Notes: generated by a model not told the origin, from the sequence alone. 20,003 nucleotides of DNA from Rozella allomycis CSF55 (GCA_000442015.1 KE561158.1:62001-82003); one strand, 5' to 3'; counted from the first letter of the stretch, positions 523 through 19,777 are shown. Translations and numbers: made by a program.

Positions 523-1272
523 TTATTTCTTTTGTTCAGTCTTCTTTGGAGCAGCTTTCTTTGGCTCTTCACCATACTGAGCTAAAAGAGCATCTTTCTT
601 GGCTTGAACACGAGCAGCACGACGTTCACGGACGTTCTTGTTTCTTGCACGTTGAGCTTCAGCTTGATCACTTGATTCAAATTTATGAATAAAATTTACG
701 CTAACAATTTGGCACGTTGTTTTTCATTCTTGGCCTTGATGATATATTCCATCAAAACACGCTTGTTCTTGAAAACATTACCCTTTGACTTGAGGTAAAG
801 TTCACGGTACAAATGCTTGTCAATTTTGCCAGCTTCCCTGTATTTTCTTAGGAGGCGTCTCAAGACACGTTGACGGCGCATCCAGATGACCATGCTTGGC
901 ATACGAGCTTCAGCAGTACCTTGGCGTTTACCATATCCAGTATGACGACCTTTACGCTTGGCAGCCAATCTTTCACGAACACGGAATCTGGAGTGCATAG
1001 CTTGTGGTTGACGGATGATCAAACCATCTTTTACTAACTTGCGAATATCTTTGCCTAAAATTAAAATATGTTCAACAAAAAAATATTAAAGCAAATTGAA
1101 TGATCGTGTAATTTGAAACAGTTGCTTACGAGAATTTGCATTTCCGATGTTTTCAGTTTCCTTTGGATCCAACCAAACTTTGCGTTTTCCACATCCGAGA
1201 ACGGAAGCTGCTAAACGTTTCTGAGAGCGTAAATTTGGCCTAAACGTAACATATATAAGCTTAAAATTACAT
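523..1272 (-). CDS. RPL19: 60S ribosomal protein L19 (eL19), 4 exons
   Basis: Exons 1271-1272 (AT), 1130-1239, 700-1054, 523-670; introns 31, 75 and 29 nt. Spliced protein [26 protein letters not shown]...[18 protein letters not shown]...[15 protein letters not shown] is canonical eL19. Confidence 0.97.
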
Positions 1273-1766: not shown

Positions 1767-4081
1767 CTATGTTGCTTCTTCTATTTCTTCGTCTGGAACA
1801 GATACGTATCCTTCATTTGATACACTTTTATATTTATAGTTTTTGCAAATGCGCATATATAGGAGAATTGCCAGCACTAAAATACCCGAATACATGACGG
1901 ATGTNGGAACAGATACGTATCCTTCATTTGATGCACTTTTATATTTATAGTTTTTGCAAATGCGGATATATAGGAGAATTGCCAGCACTAAAATACCCGA
2001 ATACATGACGGATGTCCACATTTCATGATGTGGAATATTACCAATTGGATCAAAAAGGTTAAATAGGATTACTAATAGGTTACCGAGAGCTATCGCTAAA
2101 AGCCATCCTGACTGGCAAATCGATTTCATCGATGAAGGTGCTTGTGAGTATGCTATATAAAGTCATTAATATTGTCTACCAAATTCCAAACCAGTTATAC
2201 TAACCAATACTTCCCCGCATGTAAGAACGATGTATTGAGGTATTTGCCACAAAATTGATATACAGTTATCATTGCATTGAGAGGCATCACTAAGTCTAGG
2301 GCCAGTCATGGTATTATCAATTTCAAATTGGAGATATGCTGACATTAAAAATGCTACAAGCGCAATTATCAAACCCGCGCCAATTTTCCTTAGTGCGGTT
2401 AATTTGATGCCAAATTTCCTGACAGCAGGGAAAATAAGTTTTTGAAATAAAGGAATCATAATTAAAATGAAAACAGTGTTCCAAACCTGCATTGATTCTG
2501 GAGGAATTGAAATTGTGCTGCCGAATATTGACGCTTTATGGTTCATTTGCCAAACCTGTGCCGTCCATCTAGATCCTTGTTGATCATAGATCATCCAAAA
2601 AACTGACAGTGGAGCGAAAATAATCAAGACAGAAAACACAGACTTGATTTCATCTATAGTTTTGCGGTCAAATAACGGGTATGCGTAATATAACCAATGG
2701 TTAGGTAATTCGGCCTCAGATTCTTCCCTTTTCCTTTTTCTTCTCTCTTTTATTGCAGTTTTTACAACATTAAACATCAAAATAGAAACATTCCCACTTA
2801 GAGGTCTGTGTTTGTAGGATTTAGAGCCAATAACAAACAAGCAAGTCGCTACAATTAACAAGATCGCGGGCAAGCCAAAAGCCAATGGAAAACATTGATC
2901 AGATCCAAAACTTTTGAATTTTAATAAAAAAATTACCATTGAACATTTTCCCTAATCCATGGAGTTATTATCATGGAAAAGAAACTTCCCGCATTTATCG
3001 AAAAATAGAACAGCGAGAAAAATAACGCTGATTGCTTAACCTGTGAAGCATCGAATTGATCACCACCAAAAGAAACAACACAGGGCTTTTTTGTTTGATT
3101 GTAATATTTACCTTGATACCTCCTGTACCTATAGCTAACAATAGAAGCCCAATTAAAGCCCCATAGGGCTGTGGTGGATTGCCGGCAACAGATGGAAATG
3201 CAGTCACTGCCATTACTATGTTCCCAATAATATATACAATAGAAAGAGTTAAAATTGTTCTATATTTTCCCCAATAGCTATCTGCTAAAATAGCCCCTAT
3301 TCAAATATAACATTGGCGTCATACCGAATAATGGAAAAAAATATGCCAACATGACAAATGAATGATAAATCGAAGTAGCCATTCCATCAGGGAATCTCAA
3401 AAACTGTGCTAGGTATGTCCACAGAATTGCCCGCATTCCATAGTAAGAAAACCTCTCGCAGAACTCATTACCGATTATAAAAANGCTTCCCGCATTTATC
3501 GAAAAATAGAATAGCGAGAAAAACAATGCGGACTGTTTAACCTGTGAAGCATCGAATTGATCACCACCAAAAGAAACAACACAGGGCTTTTTTGTTTGAT
3601 TGTAATATTTACCTTGATACCTCCTGTACCTATAGCTAACAATAGAAGCCCAATTAAGGCCCCATAAGGCTGTGGTGGATTGCCAGCAACAGATGGAAAT
3701 GCAGTCACTGCCATTACTATGTTCCCAATAATATATACAATAGAAAGAGTTAAAATTGTTCTATATTTTCCCCAATAGCTATCTGCTAAAATAGCCCCTA
3801 TTCAAATATAACATTGGCGTCATACCGAATAATGGAAAAAAATATGCCAACATGACAAATGAATGATAAATCGAAGTAGCCATTCCATCAGGGAATCTCA
3901 AAAACTGTGCCAGATATGTCCACAGAATTGCCCTCATTCCATAGTAAGAAAACCTCTCGCAGAACTCATTACCGATTATAAAAAATACAGATTTTGGAAG
4001 TGAATCACTAGAATGATTATCGGACCCCATTATTTCAGTAGGGCCTCCGGCTTCCAATAATTTATCTGAATCTTCCGACAT
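1767..4081 (-). CDS. PTR2: Proton-dependent oligopeptide transporter (POT/PTR2, SLC15 PepT-like); one gene with assembly-duplicated segments
   Basis: ExxERFxYYG motif (NEFCERFSYYGMR), PTR2 signature after splicing (GAILADSYWGKYRTI), FYFSINAGS, and WQIPQY...GLEFAYSQAP. Four short GT-AG introns. Duplicates at n1905 and n3484. Confidence 0.93.
1795..2015. repeat. ~110-bp duplicate flanking gap n1905 (probable allelic overlap)
   Basis: 1795-1904 and 1906-2015 are identical except for about 2 SNPs. Confidence 0.8.
2984..3984. repeat. ~500-bp duplicate flanking gap n3484 (probable allelic overlap)
   Basis: 2984-3483 and 3485-3984 are near-identical, including introns, with scattered and mostly synonymous SNPs. 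Confidence 0.8.
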
Positions 4082-4630: not shown

Positions 4631-4827
4631 AGTCATAAGTGCGCGCCTATTTATATTGTGACCCATCGATTTCTGGAAATTTCGAGATGTCTGATCAGAT
4701 TCGGAGAATTTCTACAAAATCTTATCNAGAGAGTCATTAGTGCGCGCCTATTTATATTGTGGCCCATCGATTTCTGGAAATTTCGAGATGTCGGATCAGA
4801 TTCGGAGAATTTCTACCGAATCTTATC
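4631..4827. repeat. ~96-bp duplicate of the sHSP promoter flanking gap n4727 (probable allelic overlap)
   Basis: 4631-4726 and 4732-4827 differ by about 5 substitutions. Confidence 0.75.
4648..4684 (-). promoter_or_regulatory. TATA box plus heat shock element of the sHSP gene
   Basis: TATAAATA on the minus strand at 4648-4655, about 43 nt upstream of the ATG. Perfect three-unit HSE tTTCtgGAAatTTCg at 4670-4684. Confidence 0.85.
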
Positions 4828-6028: not shown

Positions 6029-9000
6029 TTAGAATGGCTTCACTCTAGTCTTACTCTTCAACATAGCATACGTAACAGTCTACCCAATTCAATCCCATAT
6101 CTTACCTGACCAGGCACCTTAACCTCACTCATCACCACGTCCCCAAAAACATCTCTATTCTTCTCCACAATATTCCACCACGCCTTTTCAAGCACCACAG
6201 CCGACCGACTGACCGGCGCATCCTACGCTCCCAAACACCAACACAGCATACCTCTCCATTAAACCTAATACAATTATCAATAACCAATTTAAAGTCGCTC
6301 AAAACTTGGCCAACATTCTCGTAAAAATCCTGCTGCAGTTTGGTATGGATCGTTGAGAGGTCCATTGGCTGCTTGATTATTTTCGGATAGTTGAAGAGCT
6401 TCAGTTGCTTGTAATCAACTGGCTCGTTGAATGGAAACGCGAACACTTCCTGTCTGATACCCTGGATCAGCTGAACAAGTCTGTGTTTTAAATCTCTAGG
6501 GATCGGGTTCTGCGGTTTCTTCAATGGCAGACATGAAACTAGTCTTGGCCATTCCTTTTCATAAAACAAATCCAATTTCTTTGCCATTACAAACACCTAA
6601 AATTGTTTCTGATTGAATCTATTTACTTCTGAATCATCGAGATTAAAAGTGTAAGCGTTTTTGATCATCAACTTGAAATCAAAGATGAAATCATCAATTG
6701 TTGCATACTTTTCAATACGCCCTGCGAGTGTTTTCAGATCCATGGGCATTCTGATAATGTCATAGTATTTGGGAATGGAATACAAGATGGCGTCAACGGG
6801 ATCCAAGAATGGAAATGCGAATGGCTGTTTTTTACATTTTTCAATCAAATTGTGGCAAACAATGATTTCTTCAGGATCCATTCTAGTGTGAGGCCAGGGT
6901 GTTAACCAACCAGCCACTTGAGTTTCAAACACATTTAATAATTCTAGAGCTTCGGTGTAGATGGAGGAATCTTGGTTGTTGTAAATGAAGCAGTTGACGA
7001 ATACTTGTTGCACATCGAGAATGAAATCAAAGGTGGAAGAGTAGTTTGAGAGATTTGATTCTATTGTAGAGAAATCCATTGGACGTTTAATTAAATGAAA
7101 GTAATTTGGGATATTTAAAGCTACTGGATCAACCGGTTCAAGAAAATGGTAACCTAATGGATGATCTTTTAAGAGAGATAGTAATGATTTGGCTTGATTT
7201 AAATTGAATGATTTAGGGAATCTACCAGACCAGCCATTGGAATAAGCTTCCAACGGTGCAGCTGATGTTAAAGAGATTGAAGGAGATTCAATTACTCTAT
7301 CAGAGTGGACTATTGTAGGGGACTGATTAATAATTGGAGACTCTATCAACGTAGATAATTCATCAATTTTGTAAGATTCATTGATTGTTTGTTCTTGTTG
7401 TTTTGAAGGTTTTAATTTTAATTTTATTGTAGAAGATTTTCTCCTTTCATTATTCAATTTCAATGAAACTTGCAATGATTTTCTACGCCCATCTCTTTCT
7501 CTCTCTCTTTCTCTTTCTACTTTTTCCCTCTCTAATCTCTCCCTCTCTAATCTCTCCAACCTCTCTAAATTTTCTAATTCATAATTCATTCTCTTTTGAT
7601 TCCACTCACTAATTTCTTCATTCTCAATTTGAATTCTAAAATTTCTATCATGCTCACTCTCATTATAATCACCAATAACTAAATCCTGCTGAAACAATGA
7701 CTTGACTCTAATTAAACACTTTTCATAAATCTTTTCAAGTTGAATTGAATTTTGATAAACAAGAGAACCTAAAAATAGAACAATGAAATTTCACAAATAC
7801 CTTTTTGATTAAAAAGTTGGCAATTTTTAAAGATTAATGAAACATCAGAATCAAAATGTTTAAAATTTTTGTAAATGTTTAATTTAGATTCAATTTTTGA
7901 TATATCCATTGGTCTTTTTATTTTGTTGAAATAGATTGGAATGTTTAATGCTATTGGATCTACAGGGTATAGAAAATCTATAGAAATTTTTTGAGATTTA
8001 ATTTTATCTAGAATTTCTAAAAATAGATCTAATAATTTCTTTTTTGGTTTTGGAATTAATTGTTTGGAAATTTGAAAAAATAATTTTTCAGTTTCCAGCC
8101 ATTCTTGTTTCTCTAATTTATTAAATGAAAATTTATTGTTTTTTATTAAAGATTCAAAAGATTCAACAAAAGATTCAATTGATTTAAATTGGTTCAAGTT
8201 GTTTCTCAACAATAAATAATCTGGATTAGTTAAGACCATTTGTCTTTCTCTTCCTGGATCATATTCCAATCTATTAACCAAACAAGCAATAACGCGATCA
8301 ATAGGAGGTACAGAGGGGGGTTGAAATGGTTGGGAATTAGTCACTGGTGAAGTAGTTGTAGTAAGAGGTGTAGTAGTAGCAGTAGAAGTAGTAGTAATTG
8401 ATTCAACCTTATCTTTCTCTTCTCCCTTCTCATCACCTTCACCTTCCACCCCTCCCCCTTCTACCTCTAACCACGTGGTAATGTTCTCATTAAAAAGATT
8501 CAACAAACTCTCCCCCTTCTTATAAAACAACGAATCAGGGGTATTAAAAGTAAAACAATTCTTGAAAATCAATTCAAAATCAAACATCAACTGATGCAAA
8601 TTCAAATACTTGCCACACAATGCCTTGCATTCAATAGTAAACAGATCCATCGGCTGCTTAATAACCTTGTAGTAATTATACACTCGCTTGTCAACTGGAT
8701 ACTTGAATATTTCAGACTCTGGAATCAAGCTTAATTGATCTAGAATTGATAATGCTTTTTCTGATATTTTGGTTGTGGAATTTGGAATTGCTATTATTGT
8801 TTTTATTGACTCTTCTGGAAGTGGATATTCTGGAATGTGATAACACAAGTCTAGATATTTAAATATTGATTTTAATCTCTGAGGATCGTTTATTAGTTTA
8901 TTAAATACATATTTTCTTATTCTGCTGCAAGTAGCATTAGCCAATGCCATAAATTCAGAAGTTTGTATAGACATTGAAGTAGATATTGAAGTAGACATTG

Positions 9001-10906
9001 AAGTAGATGGACCATAAGTAGTAGAAGTAGTATCAACTGTAGCAGTAGCCTCACCTTCCTTACTCTCTCCACTTCCCTCTCCTTCCTTTCTCTCTCTACT
9101 CTCTCCACTCTCTCTACTCTCTCCACTATCTTCACCCTTATCACACCACTGCCGTATGAAATCAATTAATTGTTGGACTTGCTTTCCATCTTCTTCAACT
9201 CTCGCAGGAATTTCCACATTACTCAACGATCTTCTACACTCCTTGCTAAAATACCTCTGCAATTTCAATCCCTTCTCATAAACAATAGACCCAGGGTCAT
9301 TGAATACAAAACAATTATCAAACATTAAAACAATATCGCTAATAAAATCACCGACAGTCTTGTAATGATTCAACTTGTATTCAATAGTGGACAAGTCTAT
9401 TGGATTAGTAATAATGTTGTAGTAGAATGGAGTTTTAATGTCAACTGGGTATCTGAATGGAATAGCCTCTGGATGTTCAGCCAGTCTGTTTAATAGCTTT
9501 TTGCAGGTTGGAATAAATAGTGAAATGTCATCGTTGTTGAAGGGTGAAGAATTGATGGACTTTCTTTTAATGTCTAGTTGGAATTGATTGAATTCATCTT
9601 CAACGTCTGATAATTGTTCTGGTTGTTCATTAATTGATATTTTAATTCTCATTGGTTGCATGAATTGTTTCTCATAATAGATTTCATATATTTGCATTAG
9701 ATAGCCATCCAACATGGGATTCACATTAAACAATTCTAATATTCTATTCTTTATCCATTCTTGCTGTTTCATCCATTCTTTGAATTTACATTGTTTTGTT
9801 TTTATCAATTTTAAGATATTAATCAAGCAGCAAACTTTAATTTCCAAGCAATCCCACTTGACCAAATCCAACACATAAGCCATCACATCCATTAGGGGAT
9901 TTAAAGGTAGTGAGTTTGACGTAGTAATAGATGTACTATTAGCAGTAACACCTGAACCTGTAGTAGTAATACTTGCACCTGTACTATTAACACTTACACT
10001 CGCTGTCACACTTGCACTACTACTCTTCCCCCCATTAACCCCACTAACTCCCCTNACTAGCAGTTGCACTACTACTACTTTTCCCCCCATTAACCCCACT
10101 AACTCCCCTTTCATCACCTCTTCCCTCTTGAAGAAAAGATAAAATTAATAAACTCTTGATGGCTTCTTTCCTAACAGAAATAAAATGCCCCTGTTTAGAA
10201 TAAGCTTTAAACAATTCCAAATCAATTTCCATTAACCTAGTCATTTGAAATTTACAAAGAGATTCCAAACACGAAACAGTCCACGTATTATGAAACGATG
10301 GAAACAACAAATCTTTCAATCGGTACCTCTCAATCTCTGACAGAATATCTTCAAACATGGGGTTTCTATAGTTCACTTTATTTCCTTTATTGATTATTAG
10401 AATAGATCTCGTTAATGATTTTATCACTGATGATACATAATAACTATCAGAATACTTTTTAAATCATTTCAATTGTTTACTTGATCATTTCCATTGTCAT
10501 TGTAACATAAAATATTCAACAGAAATTTAACTACAATCATTGGAGATTGGCCATTCTCATATCTAGAAAATGAAATTGCTTCTATTATTGCCTATTCTTA
10601 AGAGTTTAATGGTTTACTTTTTGCATAAAATAGTTTGTAAAGTTTTCAAATGAATTTGGCTTTGGCACTGTATAACTCTCTTGCTGTTCAGAATAACAAT
10701 ATCTTTCTTTCAATGGAAATAATAGTTTACCTATAATAATCAATTACTCTACTTGATTACCTCGTCTTGAAAAATGTTAATAAATATTTCAATCCCTTCC
10801 AATCCAAACTCTGATTCCCAACATGCTTCGCCAACGAATACGCAGCCTATTTGATTAGTCTTCAATCTTTACTTGCATTCTAACTCTATAAAATGCTTTT
10901 GAATCA
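6029..10906 (-). CDS. TAF2: TFIID subunit TAF2 C-terminal part fused to six bromodomains; 5' portion lost in gap n10907
   Basis: Spliced 5' part reads FYRVRMQ|AAYSLAK...NSFENFTNYFMQK|AI...LLNILCYNDN..|YSDSYY...EIERYRLKDLLFPSFHNTWTVSCL...YSKQGHFISVRKEA, matching TAF2. Six PVD...PMDL...N..(F/Y)N bromodomains follow in the same spliced frame. The stop at 6029 assumes a last 26-nt intron. Confidence 0.9.
10703..10760 (-). other. Double abutting mini-intron (30 + 28 nt) in TAF2
   Basis: ACGAG|gtaatcaagtagagtaattgattattatag|gtaaactattatttccattgaaagaaag|ATATTGT restores ...KTRYCY. Confidence 0.7.
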
Positions 10907-10907
10907 N

Positions 10908-11414
10908 CTTCATCAATAAATCCATTTGATTCACAGGAAACAAAGCCATATAAAAACGATAAAGAAATAGTTGCGATGAAGAGTCTTTTGGATGCTTACG
11001 AAACAAGAGACATCATAGCCTTTGAAAAGATTATTAAAGGTACTAAATAATAATAAACTAGAAAGAAAATGAGCTTTCAATAATGGGAGATTCCTTTATT
11101 AAGGATTTCATTGAGCCGATGATTCACCAGTTACGAACTTTGTTCATCCTAGACGCTACAATACCTTACTCTTCTGTTGATGTCTCATTTTTGGCTTCTT
11201 CTGCAAATATTAATAAAGAAAGAATTGAAGAATTAATAATTGAATTGTTGTTGGACAAGAAGCTACATGGAAGATACGATCAGATGAAGGGTGTTTTATA
11301 CTTGAAAGAAAAGTATTCGGTTAGTTTCTATCAAATAGGAATAATGTGAATGAAGAATTTTGGCAATCTATGAATGAGTGGTCAACATCATTGAACCGGT
11401 TAGTTGATGGAATG
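10908..11414 (+). CDS. CSN2: COP9 signalosome subunit 2, C-terminal PCI fragment bounded by gaps
   Basis: [23 protein letters not shown]...[23 protein letters not shown]...[14 protein letters not shown]...EWSTSLNRL; two ~26-nt introns. Confidence 0.92.
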
Positions 11415-11815: not shown

Positions 11816-12268
11816 CCTTTTTCATTTGAATATCAGTATCTCCGGGATAAACGTAACCCCACATCTCTAAAAACAATTGCTGCTCTATTGTCAATGAAAA
11901 CACATGAATGCAATCTAATTGCTTCCCATTCGTGTTCTTTTTTCTTCCCCCGTTCGCTTTCATTCATTTTTTGTAGTGTCTTAAAAACTTCGTCGATGCT
12001 ACCTTTAGACCAAAATTTTACACAGCGCTCTGTTGCGACAGATGCCACTTTGAATGATTCAGAACATTCTCTAAACTCGTATTTTTTTGCCCGTTCTTGG
12101 TAATAGATAGATTTGTAGACCTTCAAGAGACTTTGTGTCAAATCTTTATTGCGGGGATTTCGTTGGATAGATTCGTATTCGGCATATTTGAAATCATCCA
12201 GTATCCACTGGAGAGAGGGTATACATGGAGATGACACCAAGGAACACTATAAGCAGTAATATTTTCAT
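11745..12268 (-). pseudogene. Possible frameshifted gene for a secreted protein
   Basis: Signal-peptide-like MKILLLIVFLGVISMYTLS at 12268 stops at 12194, while overlapping ORFs 11833-12240 and 11745-11963 continue in other frames. No normal-sized intron was found to join them. Confidence 0.3.
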
Positions 12269-12591
12269 AATTCAATGTGGCTTGTTCCAAAATTAAAAAT
12301 AGAAGTGGAAATGAGTTATTTTCGAATTTAGAAAATCATGGACTTTATTGCTAAATATTTATGATCCGTATCTTAAATCTTAAATCCTTCAAAGTGGTAA
12401 CTCGTAAGTCACCGGTTTTATCGTTACATTACGCAGTCAAAACCGATTACATTCCGTGTTCAGTGGTTTCTAATTCGTCACCTATAACTCAACAACTACC
12501 ATACAAAGTCTTCAAACTAAATACATTAAAACGATAACATCTTCTCTAATTAATTAAATTTGAATCCTATTTCCATTCTTACCCAAGCCAC

Positions 12592-13114
12592 ATGATGACC
12601 ACCAGATCATTCGATACAACTTCACGCCTCCCATACAAGCCTCAGTCCTCATCCGAGCGCTACTCTCTCCCTGAAGACTACCTTGAAATAGAAGTTGTAA
12701 ATCCCATTACAGTCAACGCCGGCACCAAGAACCAGTATACCGACTATGAGATCATTTGCCGAGTAAGCGATCCATATATGCCAAAAATAGACGAATATAC
12801 CTGTCTTCAAGAAGCAATCCAGCACCGTCCGTCGCCGATACTCTGATTTCGAATGGTTTCGTGATTTGCTAGAAAAGGAAAACCCGCGTGTTTCTATTCC
12901 GGCGCTACCTGGAAAAATATTTTTCAAGAATAGATTTGCACCGGAGATTATAGAGACGAGGAGAAGAGCGCTGGAACGCTTTCTGCAGGTGTAAGGATCT
13001 AGGGTTGATTTTAGTAGGGTATCCGGACATCCGTTGTTGCAAACTGGAAGTGCTGCAAAGACATTGGTTGCATTTATACAAGATCAGTCGTTTTCTCGAG
13101 AAGCCTTTTCGTAG
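12592..13114 (+). CDS. SNX3: Sorting nexin 3 (PX domain), 3 exons
   Basis: Introns 12763-12790 and 12991-13017. [17 protein letters not shown]...[16 protein letters not shown]...[12 protein letters not shown]...IPALPGK...[10 protein letters not shown]. Confidence 0.95.
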
Positions 13115-13297
13115 ACGCAATAAATTAATACATTATTTTCAAATTAAGTTCAGTTTGTTTTAAAATCCAAGTAAAAATAGCATCAAATAATCAAAATGTG
13201 TAAACTATTAAACAAAAAGCATGATCGATGTGCCATTTTATTGAAACAATTTCATTTGACACATTTCCAAATCCATTCTGTAAAATTCTCCGAAACA

Positions 13298-14349
13298 ATG
13301 GTGTTGATCAAAGAATAGTAAGACTCATTCTCCACGTATATAGTCGCATAGTGTTACCGATAACAGTAGACGAAGTAACTATGAATTAACCTGAAGATAG
13401 TACCAAGTGGGACAATTGTACACTGTTGCCGACATGTCCAAGAGCGAATCTGACGGCGATTCCGGCGTAGAAATTCTCGAAAACAAGCCGTACGACGACC
13501 CGGAGCTTGGCAAGGGACAGTATACGCACAAGATCTACCATCTCGGCAGGTAATAATGGTGGTTGTGTTTGGAGTAGCAAAGTGCCGAGGTTTCTGGCGA
13601 TGATTGCGCCGGCGTCTGCGCTGAGGCTGGATGAGCAGGCGTGGAATGGGTACCCGCATTGCAAGACAGGTAGGATGTGTGTGATGCTTTTAGAGTAGTT
13701 TTGACGGTACGTGGGTGGATGGATGGAGATTTAGAGTCATTTTCTGGGGGAGAGGTTTTCGCTGATTATAGAGTCGAATCATTTAGCTGATCGCGGGACG
13801 ACTGAGAATGTAAGGGGGATGGTATAGTGTAGTAGGCGCTTAATTTGAGTGCGGAGCAGTTGAAGCAGCGGGAGGTTGTGTATATGGATATAGCGAATGA
13901 TCCAGTTGACCATTATGATGAGAAGAATGATCCAGCCAAGGTTAGGAGTGAGAAGACTGGGAGGGGACCTTTGACTGGGAATTGGAAGGTTTGGTGATGT
14001 GAGTGTGTGTGAATTTAGGATACATGTGAGCCTGTGATGTGTTGTTATAAAACGGTTATTATAAAGTTCAAGGTGTTTGGATTGGAGACAAAGACTGAGC
14101 ATTTTATAGCCAAAGTATGGAATTGCATTGAATATGAGTAGTATCAATTTGGATTGTTTCAAAAGTTTCATAGAATGTTATTTTGTTTGCTTGACAAGTG
14201 GTTTGGAATGACTATTGAAGATATTAGAAGGATAGAAGAGGAAGCTAAAAAGGAGTTGAATTTGGTAATAGATATGATTGATTGAGATTTAATAGAGAAT
14301 GTCAAAGAACAATTTAACTGATGGAGTTGCAGCACCAGCGCCTGCCTAG
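13298..14349 (+). CDS. PITPN: Class I phosphatidylinositol transfer protein (PITPalpha/beta-like, START-like fold), 10 exons, 266 aa; absent from the ORF track
   Basis: Exons 13298-13317, 13344-13374, 13401-13549, 13578-13669, 13699-13706, 13735-13809, 13836-13988, 14019-14114, 14142-14264, 14296-14349. [24 protein letters not shown]...[15 protein letters not shown]...[15 protein letters not shown]...KTGRGPL...MCCYK...[12 protein letters not shown]. Confidence 0.96.
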
Positions 14350-14471: not shown

Positions 14472-17400
14472 TTATTTGATTGAATTGAAAAACTCATCAG
14501 CTGTTGTCACCGAATAATCTTGCTCTTGATCCTGCTCATTCTCCAATTCTTCCAACAACTGATTCAACGACAATTTCTTATTCTTATTCACAACCTTTTT
14601 ATTATTCTCCTTTTTAAACAAATCAATCAACTCTGAAGTGTTCATTGAACTAGTTGAAGAATTTTGTTCATTAACAACTGAATTAGCCACAGCCAATTTG
14701 AATTTTTGCAAACTAGAAACACAATTTATGAAATTTACTTTAAAATTTTCTCTTCCAGGGTGTCTTTGCAAATTAATCTGTACACGTTGACAACCTTCTT
14801 TTGGCCTATTCTGTGCGCTCTGTCCATGGCTTGCAAATCTTTCCTAAGTTTAAAACGCTGAATTTAGTTACATGGGGTTCCAATCGTGTTCCATGAAGAT
14901 TACAGTGTCAGCCCCTGTCAGATTGAGACCCAAGCCACCAACTTGAGTAGTTAAAATTAAACAATCAATTGAAGGATCAGAATTAAATTTTGAAACGATA
15001 TCAATTCTTTTTGTTGAATCTACAGATCCATCTAATCTTAGATAAGAAATGAATGGGAAATGAGGTTTGAATAGAATATTTTCAATTAAATCCAGGGTTG
15101 ATTTTAGTTGAACAAAGATTAATATTCTGTGGGGACTTAAATTATTATCTGGTGATATTCCACAGTCTATCAGCAATTGTTTCAAAGCAACAAACTTTCC
15201 ACTAACCTCCAACTGTGACATTAAAGAAGAGTTTGAAGGTACAGAAGTTGGCAAGGAGTTTGTTTCCATTTTAACCTCTTTAACATCTTTAACACCTTTA
15301 ACACCTTTAACAACTTTAGCATTTTTAACATCTTTAGTGGCTTTACTCTTTCCCTTACCCTTCACTTTAACTTCTTCACCCTTCACTACCTCACCCTTAC
15401 CACTCACCTCACCTTTCTCACCCTCAATTCTTTCATCTTTGAGTAATAATGGATGAGTGATTAATCTTCTTAATTCTTGCAAACTCTGAAACACATGAAT
15501 TTCATCCAATTCAATTTGCTCATAAATCTTTGATTGAATTTTAGAAAGTGAACAATAATAATCTTGCATAATCTTGGGTGGCAAATCATTTAAAACTTGA
15601 TCTTTAATTCTTCTCAACATGAATGGCAGCATTTGTCTGTGTAAACCATCCAATGCAATAACCCCTGCTTCATTCATTTTAACTTCACCCTTTATTTTAA
15701 CGTCACTCTATATTTTAACGTCACTTTTAACTCTTACTTCACCCTTAACTCTTACTTCACTCTTAACTCTATCACCCATCTTATTCTCATTTATTTTCAT
15801 CTTGATGGGCTTGACATATTTCTCATTGAATTCTTGCTCACTGCCTAGAAATCCAGGCATTAGAAAATCAAAAATAGACCAAAGTTCTAGAATGTTATTT
15901 TGGATTGGAGTGCCAGTTAAAACTAATCTATGCTTAGCCACAATAGATTTAACAGCCAAAGAAATTTTAGTTTTTGGATTTTTGATTACATGGCCTTCAT
16001 CTAGAATGAAATAATTGTAATTGAATTTCTTAAAGTAGTGGAGATTGTTTCTTAAAAAGTCAAAGCTGCAAATGAAGACATTGTAGTTTGATGTTGATTG
16101 ATTAAGTGGCCAATCTTTTTTGTTTTTTGAATGGAATTGCAGGGGTTTTAAAAAGGAAGAGAAAGATTTGATTTCATTTTCCCAGTGGCCTATTAAAGAG
16201 GGTGGGCAAACAACCAAGCTAGGAATTTTATTATTCTTAAACTGAACAGCCGAAACAGCGCAAATTGTTTGCAATGTTTTACCTATATCAATTAAAGTAA
16301 TATCTTTTACCTATGTCAATGCAACTATCACCACTTTACCTATGTCATTTCAACTAACATCGTTTACCTATGTCAATTAAACTATCACTACTTTACCTAT
16401 GTCATTTCAAACCCATTTGATTACCTAATCCCATGTCATCACATAGTGCTCCATGTAGTCCATACTCTTGTAGAAATAATAACCAATTAACACCTTTCAA
16501 TAATAAACACTCTAATTACCTTCTTGTTGATATTTTCGCAGAGTAGCGTTAATTTCAGTTGGAATTTCATAATTTTTAATCTTCTTGTTATCTAGTAGAC
16601 AATCAATGAAATCATTATTGATGTTTCTATTCTTGTTTAGTAGAATGATTTGAATTAATTCACCAAAACAAAAACAAGATTTATTTCTAATTTCTTTGTT
16701 TGAATCACTCATCAATGATAGAATTGGAATTATTATTTCATTTGAAATTGAATCAATCAAAATATTTTCTTTTAAAATTAATTCAATCAAATCTAAAATT
16801 CCAAATTTAAATTCATAAATTTCTTTAATCAAATCTTTCAAATCTCTAAAATATTTTTCATCTCTTTTCAATAAATTTATAAATATTTTAATTGCATTTT
16901 CATTTCTATTTTTTATCAAATTTATTATTTTCTCTATTGGAATTTTATTTAAATAAACATTGTCCAACTCTCCACTAACAACCTCCAGCACTTCCAGCAA
17001 AGAAAAAGGTGAAGTAGTTAAGGTTGGAGTAGGTTGAGTTGGAGAGTTAGTAGTGGTTGGAGTGCTAGTCTCAATAGTAGTAGTAGTATTGACAGTAGAA
17101 GTAGTCTCAATAGAAGTAGAAGTAGTAGTCTCAATAGAAGTAGTAGGTTCACCTTCTTTCTTTTCTTCTGCCTTTTCAACTCCCTTTTCCACTTCTAATC
17201 CTTCAAGGGAAATGATTTGATTGAAAATGGATATTTCGTGTAGATTGTTGCCAAACTCTCTCACAATTAATTTTAAAACATTTCTGGAAGCTTCATTCTT
17301 CATTTCAATTAAATTTTTAATAATTTTTTCCTTTTTAAACTTTTTGAATACTTTAACAATTGAATTTGAAACAATTTCTAAAATTTCTTTATTTTCTTCT

Positions 17401-19777
17401 CTTCTCAAACAAAACATTAATGGTCTCACAACTTGATTCAATGCTAAATTCACATCATTCTTGACCTTTACAGCAACCTCCACAGCAACTTCTCTATAGA
17501 GTTGTGGGAGTTGAGGTTGAGGGAGTTGAGGTTGAAGGGGTTGGAGTTGATCACTAACATTCCCATTCACTTCCCCATTCACTTCCCCTTCCCCTTTCCC
17601 CTCACCATGCACTTCCCCTTCACCAGTGACTTCCCCTTTCTCCTCACCATTCTCACCATTCTCACCATCTGCTTCCCCTTTAACTTCCATAAAATAGTTT
17701 AATAAATAAAAATTCAAATTCTTCTTTTCAATTAAACTCAAAAACTTTATAATTTTATTATAATTTGATTCATTAATTAAAACAGAAATCATTTTAAATG
17801 AATAAATTCTATTTCTAATCAAAACATCTTCTCCAAACACTCTAATATCCATTTCAACTTCATTCTCAACTTGAATCAAAACTCTTTCAATAAATTTCTC
17901 AATCTTTTCAATTTCAATCTCAAATTTTTTAATCTTTTTCATTAAATCTAAACTTTTATCTAAAATCATCTTTTTTAATTCTTTTTAATCTATTTTACTT
18001 TATTTTCTTCTTTCAAACTATTTTCTATCAATTTTTCAATCAATTCATTCATCAATTCTCTCTCCACTTCTTTAATTGTTAAAGTATTCATCATCCCTTC
18101 AATTGATTCTAAAACTGACATTCTAACTCCAATTATTGAATGTCTAAAAAACTGAAACATATTTGGCAAAAATTTATTCAAATAAAGAGAAGGGTTAGAA
18201 GGGTTAGAAGGGGGAGTAGTAGAGGTAATTGGGGGTTGACATGGAGAAGTAGTAGCAGTAGCAGTAGTAGTAGTAACAATCTCACCACCCATCTCACTTA
18301 GGGTTACAAGCTTGGATAATAGTCTCATTATAGATTCAGTTGAACACGTCAAATCATCCAACTCTTTCATATTATCACTCAGAATATTCATCACTTGCTC
18401 CTTTTCATCCTTCAAATACTCAACTATCGCATACATTGATTCAGCTCCAGCCTTTTTAATATCATCTTCTTCACTCTTCAACGCTTCTATTATCACCCCA
18501 TACACAATTGGCTTCAACTCACTAAACAAATCTCTTCTCACCCCCAATATATACTTGATTCCCAACAGTCCACTCAATCTAACCTCCCAATGCTCATTCT
18601 CACTCAACTCTACCAACAACCCCATTATTCTCTTCACATTCTCATCACTCACACATCTCATCAACAACCCCAAACACTGTCCACCAGTCTCTCTAACTGG
18701 AACTGATATACTATCATCTATATAATCAGCAAATCTATCCAACGCCAACAAACTCACTAGTCTCAATCCAACATCAACACTCCATCTCTCATGCTTTTCT
18801 TCATTCTTTTCTTTACTCAATCCCTTCCTCTTCCCTCCATCCCTTCCATGCTCTCTTATAATCTCACTCAACCCCAACACTGCTCCATGTCTCACATTCC
18901 AATTCGTATCAAATATCTCAACACAAAACTCTTCACACAGTCTCTGAAACTTCCACTCGCCATCCTCTCCCTTCATCTCTCCTTCACCCTCCTCTGTCTT
19001 AGCCTTCTTGCCAACCTTCATCAACTCTTCGGCATTCACCCGCTTCTTATTCCTACTCAACCCCAAAATTAACTCTCACTTTTTCATTCGCTTCAATCTA
19101 TTCCTCTCTCGAGCACTCAGCCCCTCCATCTCCACCCTTTCTTCATCCTCTTCCACTTTCACAAAATCACTCTCCTCTACCAAACTCTCCATAAATTGTG
19201 CACCCAGCCCCAATCGTTGCATCATCATCTTTCTCTGCTCCTTCAAATCAGCCGTCAACTCACTCACATCTTGGTCATATTCCTACTCTTGCAAATAACC
19301 AACTCTTTACATCCCCAGATGACGCTACCAACAATTTCCCATCATTCAACACTCGTTCCAAATCATACGCCTCAAAAGTCAATCTTCCTTCATTCTATCC
19401 CCACATTTAATTCTTGTTACCTCATCCTGCACTTTCTCATCTTTATTCTCCTCATCTTCCACATCATAATCTTCACCACAAACATTCCTCACAATCTCCC
19501 TAACAGCAACCGCAGCCGCCCATCGCGTCTCCCCACTCTTGCTCCTCAAAAACCGTTTCACCTATAACCCCCAAACAATTACCCTTACCCTCCTTATCAA
19601 ATACCCAAACTCTTCTGGATACTCGCGCTGGATATCCCCAAGATTTCGCGCAGCAGACTCTCGTATCCCCTGCGTCGACCCACTGTCCAATAACAACACC
19701 AATCGGTCAAGTCTATACGTTCACACTCTATTCATTACCTACATGCTGTTTTTAAATGGTTTTTACCTGCTAGTCAT
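14472..19777 (-). CDS. MOT1: TBP-associated SNF2-family ATPase Mot1/BTAF1, multi-exon
   Basis: [47 protein letters not shown]...[72 protein letters not shown]. Confidence 0.97.
16283..16424 (-). repeat. Array of five abutting 28-29 nt GT...AG mini-intron units within MOT1 motif I
   Basis: Units 16397-16424, 16368-16396, 16340-16367, 16311-16339 and 16283-16310 each start GTAA and end TGA(C/T)ATAG. Confidence 0.9.
19713..19766 (-). other. Double abutting mini-intron (28 + 26 nt), first intron of MOT1
   Basis: ATGACTAGCAG|gtaaaaaccatttaaaaacagcatgtag|gtaatgaatagagtgtgaacgtatag|ACTTGACCGA gives MTSRLDR. Confidence 0.75.

Follow-up and report, generated by a model that had tools for sequence, protein, structure and literature searches.

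Abutting mini-introns in a TAF2-like gene of Rozella allomycis: a candidate for stepwise splicing through a zero-length exon

How new spliceosomal introns originate and what limits intron length are long-standing questions. In Rozella allomycis CSF55 a TAF2-like gene on the minus strand is interrupted by 58 nt (10703..10760), and we asked whether these constitute one ordinary intron or two very short introns that abut with no exon sequence between them. The window, i.e. the whole stretch of DNA that was analysed (GCA_000442015.1 KE561158.1:62001-82003), has 20,003 nt with a GC content of 31-44% and eight single Ns. Genes for RPL19, HSP20, a POT-family transporter and a thaumatin-like protein were identified in it, together with Mot1/BTAF1, a gene for a phosphatidylinositol-transfer protein (PITP), the C-terminal half of CSN2 and a gene that joins a TAF2 C-domain to six bromodomains. 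The standard genetic code applies: an ORF of 791 codons is free of in-frame stops, and TAA and TAG are seen only in intron read-through. A ciliate code was also considered and was dropped because the same ORF has neither TAA nor TAG in frame.

The TAF2-like identity of the gene follows from a match to Pfam PF25577 (TPR_TAF2_C, E 4.6e-14) and from similarity to residues 788-895 of human TAF2 (E 2.6e-12). A word-indexed protein search for long TAF2 relatives returned no match; homologues were gathered by exhaustive HMMER search, and the resulting alignment covers residues 30 to 244 of the gene model, with P0003 as the best homologue. The C-terminal TPR domain and the six bromodomains lie in one reading frame (6032-10907, minus strand). 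Full-length TAF2 homologues P0009, P0010, P0014, P0020, P0003, P0265 and P0266 have C-terminal bromodomains as well; thus the combination belongs to a shared architecture and did not arise by local fusion.

The intervening sequence lies between an upstream exon of 86 nt (10761..10846), which ends in GACGAG and aligns contiguously with homologues, and a downstream exon of 85 nt (10618..10702), which starts with ATATTG and was also placed by homologue alignment. Between them we distinguish, all on the minus strand, unit 1, a 30-nt mini-intron GTAATC...TATAG (10731..10760), and unit 2, a 28-nt mini-intron GTAAAC...GAAAG (10703..10730). The 3' splice site TATAG of unit 1 directly abuts the 5' splice site GTAAAC of unit 2 (10730..10731), which is the sequence layout of a zero-length exon. 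An earlier note, made from the DNA alone, had given these coordinates, the 30 + 28 nt division and the central AG|GTAAAC, and all of them are present as read; its statement that excision of both units restores the frame and yields the ten-residue peptide TFFKTRYCYS was also borne out. At the join an Arg codon is split, with AG contributed by the upstream exon and the first base, A, by the downstream exon.

Taken as a whole, the 58 nt behave as a spliceosomal GT-AG intron, having GT...AG borders and requiring removal for the conserved frame. We compared the spliced model with P0003, P0009, P0010, P0014 and P0002; all five displayed alignments are ungapped at the join, and the nearest gaps are located 5-7 residues past it. 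Since the homologue alignment crosses the join without a gap, the borders of the 58 nt are fixed independently of any internal structure. Judging by these alignments, all 58 nt must be missing from the mRNA. Translation of the splice alternatives showed that every partly spliced product has a premature stop: unit 1 kept alone leaves the frame intact but places a stop directly after the Arg codon, unit 2 kept alone shifts the frame into stops, and use of an earlier AG within unit 2 (at 10707, 24 nt) causes a frameshift into stops too.

Two other structural readings were rejected. In the unspliced sequence both donors (GTAATC and GTAAAC) and both acceptors are intact, and the units are adjacent, not nested; the pair is therefore not a stwintron, as no splice signal is interrupted and the units stand side by side. 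A micro-exon lost between the two units is unlikely because the join is free of additional residues in the homologues. Among the relatives found, the nearest, P0140 and P0141 (~58% identical), read continuously across the intron position, which means either that they have no intron at this site or that their sequences come from spliced RNA; at the position of the window's next intron, P0140 appears to enter an intron that starts with GTA. As far as these two sequences indicate, the TAF2 pair may be young or lineage-specific.

Both halves of the TAF2 intron share the length range and the ends of the single introns of the window. We counted 26 single introns, with lengths of 26-32 nt (median 27; exactly 26 nt in 12 of the 26). 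Nineteen of them start with GTAA, and as a 3' end TAG occurs 19 times and AAG seven times. This census is confined to one 20-kb window and its support varies: nine introns of Mot1 come from exact threading of protein P0144; three of the TAF2 domain from homologue alignment; six of PITP from Pfam profile arithmetic (the two that flank a micro-exon) or from the translated model (the other four); one each of RPL19 and CSN2 from frame and homology-looking ORFs; two of the bromodomain part and four of the POT gene from reading frame only. The count omits two duplicate introns in a 501-bp repeat of the POT gene, candidates in 12079-13148 (genes without homology support) and near 6050-6260, and a probable second CSN2 intron near 11313-11338. 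A yTrA sequence at a suitable distance was present in 12 of 26 single introns, in eight of nine units of the composites described below and in 34% of shuffles, the branch motif being too degenerate to define; a branch point of its own in each half of the TAF2 pair is therefore only putative. In addition to the census introns, one of 31 nt (1240-1270, minus strand) splits the start codon of RPL19 after AT.

Four intervening sequences of the window exceed this size class, with lengths of 54, 58, 75 and 142 nt. Three of the four tile exactly into GT..AG units of 26-30 nt, in agreement with the count of the earlier note. The exception is the 75-nt intron of RPL19 (1055..1129, minus strand), which is undivided and has no internal AGGT; its flanking exons map to residues 3-37 and 40-98 of eL19 chains, with the exon ends placed at 37 and 39-40, and what falls between these matches is a split codon plus one residue. 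A supposed 'intron' of 63 nt between HSP20 and the POT gene was an error of a chaining model that allowed introns of up to 70 nt, and was replaced with the help of Pfam.

The other two composites belong to Mot1. Here a 279-aa ORF is 100% identical to P0144 (Rozella allomycis CSF55), and the entire 1620-aa protein threads exactly on the window. By this threading, the 54-nt sequence (19713..19766, minus strand), located just after the codons for M-T-S, consists of units of 28 and 26 nt with GTAG|GTAATG at the centre. The 142-nt sequence (16283..16424, minus strand) consists of five abutting units of 28, 29, 28, 29 and 28 nt, each of the form GTAA...ATAG, and interrupts the Walker A motif within its Gly codon. 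Both P0144 and P0145, two separate annotations of the organism, read straight across the array. A 121-nt solution for the array, obtained by chaining with introns of up to 70 nt allowed, was wrong and was superseded by the exact threading. The exon that follows the array (16242-16282, minus strand) itself starts with GTAAAA, which encodes Gly-Lys-Thr of Walker A; as it has no AG for 40 nt, it should not be mistakable for a sixth mini-intron of normal length.

In total, all nine units of the three composites are 26-30 nt long and start with GTAA (as opposed to 19 of 26 single introns), and all end in TAG or AAG, as single introns do. The layout is found at three loci in 20 kb, about three of the 31 intervening sequences examined, and so is not a quirk of one locus, as had been proposed; the genome-wide mechanism that the earlier note inferred is, on the strength of one window, a conjecture. 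The further observation that upstream exons of composites end in AG holds for all three composites against seven of 26 single introns (~27%), a difference that is statistically weak (Fisher p ~0.03). Such exon ends fit either regeneration of the donor or an origin by microhomology.

The Mot1 array bears on how composites come about. Tandem Repeats Finder (TRF) reported a period of 28 (4.7 copies) and a period of 57 (2.3 copies, 88% matches). Pairwise similarity scores of the five units are 10-23, values reached by 0-2% of 325 pairs of single introns (mean score 1.5, maximum 12). When the five units are aligned, no variation is seen in columns 1-4, 15, 16, 19, 21-23 and 25-28, a set that includes seven of the last eight; no column among positions 5-14 is invariant. 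These zones of conservation were partly picked after the alignment had been viewed, and for a zone fixed a priori (first six and last three nt) p is ~0.05. As far as its sequence tells, the array is clearly a tandem duplication whose splice-signal ends were kept and whose interiors diverged. Because the downstream exon starts with GTAAAA, both borders of the array carry TAG|GTAA, a 7-nt direct repeat; this TAGGTAA probably helped the duplication by favouring slippage of one unit.

No such similarity is seen within the two pairs. The TAF2 halves have a score of 3, matched or beaten by 41% of the 325 single-intron pairs, and are no more alike than unrelated introns; the halves of the 54-nt Mot1 composite have a score of -1, which 76% of background pairs reach. 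The TAF2 pair could have arisen by an old duplication whose copies later diverged internally, or by gain of a second intron at an AG|GTAA border. The model of Rogers, with duplication of an exonic AGGT segment, was rejected: for all nine units, identities were no better than those of shuffled flanks (P 0.11-0.98). Metagenome contigs scanned with the middle ORF of Mot1 and with P0141 yielded no relative. We tentatively propose that introns multiply in place, as slippage or unequal exchange between AG|GTAA borders adds complete and self-sufficient units of 26-30 nt, and that a spliceosome adapted to this length removes the arrays unit by unit through zero-length exons; we consider this general model less likely than not.

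With regard to the TAF2 locus itself, we consider it fairly probable that the 58 nt are two autonomous spliceosomal mini-introns removed stepwise (recursively) through the zero-length exon. Under the rules of intron definition a strong donor pairs with whichever competent branch and AG come first. For unit 1 these would lie 30 nt downstream of its 5' site, and the pairing would lead to removal of this unit. The AG-ending upstream exon would then be joined directly to GTAAAC, which would regenerate a normal 5' splice site (on paper, GAG + GTAAAC gives AG|GTAAAC), and a second ordinary reaction would take out unit 2. The opposite order of removal is equally possible on paper. Both the use of the central site and the order of removal we infer from the DNA.

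The PITP gene offers a neighbouring case. Here a micro-exon of 8 nt (13699-13706) separates an intron of 29 nt from one of 28 nt (13670..13734 in all, plus strand); without it the frame would be lost, as would three residues that belong between the Pfam IP_trans profile matches 67-96 and 101-124. Two spliceosomes would hardly fit on these near-abutting mini-introns at once, so they presumably need sequential removal, and the micro-exon supports the feasibility of consecutive removal by the same spliceosome. One metatranscriptome run carrying the species label gave 12 spurious partial matches (25-40 nt, <95% likeness) and no joints on the introns.

The alternative that survives best is that the 58 nt are a single ordinary intron, removed in one step via the outer sites, the central TATAG|GTAAAC being a silent relic of growth by duplication or insertion. 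The mature mRNA is identical for one-step and two-step removal, and so the end product agrees with both readings; the five-unit array of Mot1 proves that duplication makes internal sites as a by-product; and the undivided RPL19 intron, only 10 kb away, indicates that the spliceosome can remove more than 58 nt in one step, so that length alone does not force splitting and a strict rule that long introns must split is contradicted. Yet the TAF2 halves are at background similarity and the 6-nt junction between them is a perfect consensus for both types of site; a perfect central AG|GTAA between unrelated halves points to maintenance and argues against the relic of a recent duplication. Moreover, a strong GTAA donor normally takes the first competent AG, present here at the modal distance of 30 nt, and a length of 26-30 nt has been kept by all nine units. 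For these reasons we regard one-step removal as unlikely, though a serious competitor, and continue to favour stepwise removal of two mini-introns.

Another possibility is that the TAF2 fragment is dead or misassembled, in which case its 'introns' would be uninformative on splicing. The minus-strand TAF2 homology does stop abruptly at ~10907, at an N, and plus-strand CSN2 homology starts from ~10916. The N-terminal part of TAF2 is missing from the window: no aminopeptidase-like domains were found in it, and tblastn with eight homologues gave nothing upstream of ~10743. Against a dead or misassembled fragment, no stop interrupts the reading frame from the TAF2 C-domain to the last of the six bromodomains after excision of the mini-introns, homologues align with E values down to 6.8e-53 (P0003), and the same composite layout occurs in Mot1, for which the full-length protein of the annotation can be threaded exactly onto the window. 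An artefact of gene model or assembly is accordingly very improbable. TAF2 and CSN2 lie head to head in 10890-10940, each without its N-terminal half; the junction may be an inversion breakpoint or an assembly chimera, and the assembly just upstream of the TAF2 pair is to that extent doubtful.

To estimate how often such a layout arises by chance, interiors of introns were redrawn 20,000 times each, either from the composition of single introns or by shuffling the intron's own interior. In the redrawn TAF2 intron, an AG|GTAA placed centrally enough for each half to measure 24-33 nt turned up with a probability of 0.0054-0.0063; for the 54-nt composite of Mot1 the value was 0.0043-0.0070. By the same shuffling, AGGTA would be expected at such a position in roughly 1.5% of introns of 50-64 nt. 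When both strands were searched, independently of gene models, for the pattern GTAA-N19-26-[AT]AG occurring twice end to end, six starts were detected at three loci, which are the three composites, all in genes and on the coding strand; Markov-simulated windows contained 0.05 on average, with any match in five of 100. That a double-length intron merely happens to hold AGGT near its middle can be set aside as extremely improbable, since AGGT alone at a workable position of a 58-nt intron of this composition has P of 0.035-0.044, which is not negligible for a single locus, but the full AG|GTAA has P of ~0.005 and the layout recurs at two further loci, giving three in the scan against 0.05 expected. 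The reading of the TAF2 58 nt as a composite of two mini-introns of full format, and not a chance AGGT, is on these sequence statistics well supported.

Several known systems resemble this arrangement in part. Recursive splicing with zero-nucleotide exons at ratchet points is established for the long introns of Drosophila (10.1101/006163). As at ratchet points, in Rozella the 3' splice site adjoins a 5' site (AG|GTAAGT-like), the donor would be regenerated and no trace of the junction would be left in the mRNA. The scale is different: in Drosophila the segments are of kilobase size and serve very long introns, whereas in Rozella, where the case is made from sequence, segments are 26-30 nt, totals are 54-142 nt and up to five units are stacked.

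Fungal examples are described in two reports (10.1101/226894, 10.1101/224170), where recursive splicing through a zero-length exon is given for the 336-nt intron of S. pombe SPNCRNA.445 and for the 375-nt intron of C. neoformans BOT1 (210 + 165 nt). The likeness is that, in fungi again, one annotated intron is really two around a zero-length exon. Those cases (two in S. pombe, one in C. neoformans) are isolated, were found by spliceosome profiling and have halves longer than the normal introns of the species; in Rozella, by contrast, there are three cases per 20 kb, with units of modal size and one five-fold tandem array. Stwintrons, or complex intervening sequences, of filamentous fungi and Lipomyces are removed by consecutive standard splicing and have a proposed origin in duplication of a donor element (PMC7138796). 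The internal intron of a stwintron, as portrayed there, is nested in a splice signal of the external one, unlike the side-by-side units of Rozella, in which each signal is intact before splicing.

Head-to-tail copies that each have both splice sites, as in the Mot1 array, are what intron gain by tandem duplication would produce. In the classical model the duplicated segment is exonic and contains AGGT; in Rozella it is apparently an existing intron that was duplicated. For humans, Zhuo et al. in 2007 reportedly found introns that derive from tandem arrays. Tandem duplication is listed among mechanisms of intron gain in PMC12862383.

The narrow length mode near the spliceosomal minimum is shared with other genomes that have tiny introns. 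Excerpts of the literature give introns of ~25 nt in Paramecium and Nyctotherus (PMC5014332), introns of ~30 nt in Rozella (PMC6349667) and a lowest fungal median of 29 bp, for a species unnamed in the passage (PMC8042348); the excerpts of these three papers make no mention of abutting or tandem mini-introns. Our literature search returned nothing linking Rozella or tiny introns with recursive splicing, and a search for tandem, abutting or juxtaposed introns returned no natural spliceosomal case. What would be new, the sequence data suggest, is the scale: recursive splicing through zero-length exons in introns as small as any known, tied to duplication of introns in place.

In Mot1 an intron has been caught as a five-fold tandem array, and the 54-nt Mot1 and TAF2 pairs have the same layout with diverged units. 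If the units are spliced separately, recursive splicing extends from the giant introns of animals to the smallest introns known, duplication of an intron is harmless because each copy removes itself, and a quantised distribution of intron lengths is predicted, with peaks at multiples of ~28 nt. Were composites as dense in the whole genome as in the window, at roughly every tenth intron position, stacks would account for hundreds of its 'long' introns. Multiplication in place, if true, would make ongoing intron gain directly observable, and would represent the shortest and most iterated recursive splicing known. There are consequences for annotation as well: gene finders whose upper limit on intron length is low will break up genes that contain composite introns, and RNA-seq aligners may label splicing intermediates as retained introns.

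Duplications outside the composites were also observed. The POT transporter gene has an internal tandem duplication at 2978-3778 (spacing 501 nt; 300 nt at 96% identity), which doubles two mini-introns together with the part of the protein that matches Pfam PTR2 positions 50-100, and may be a genuine duplication of part of the gene or an artefact of assembly. Two-copy tandem repeats are present at or near gene ends at 105-304, 1794-2015 and 4631-4827, with periods of 101, 111 and 101 nt, respectively, and matches of 94-97%.
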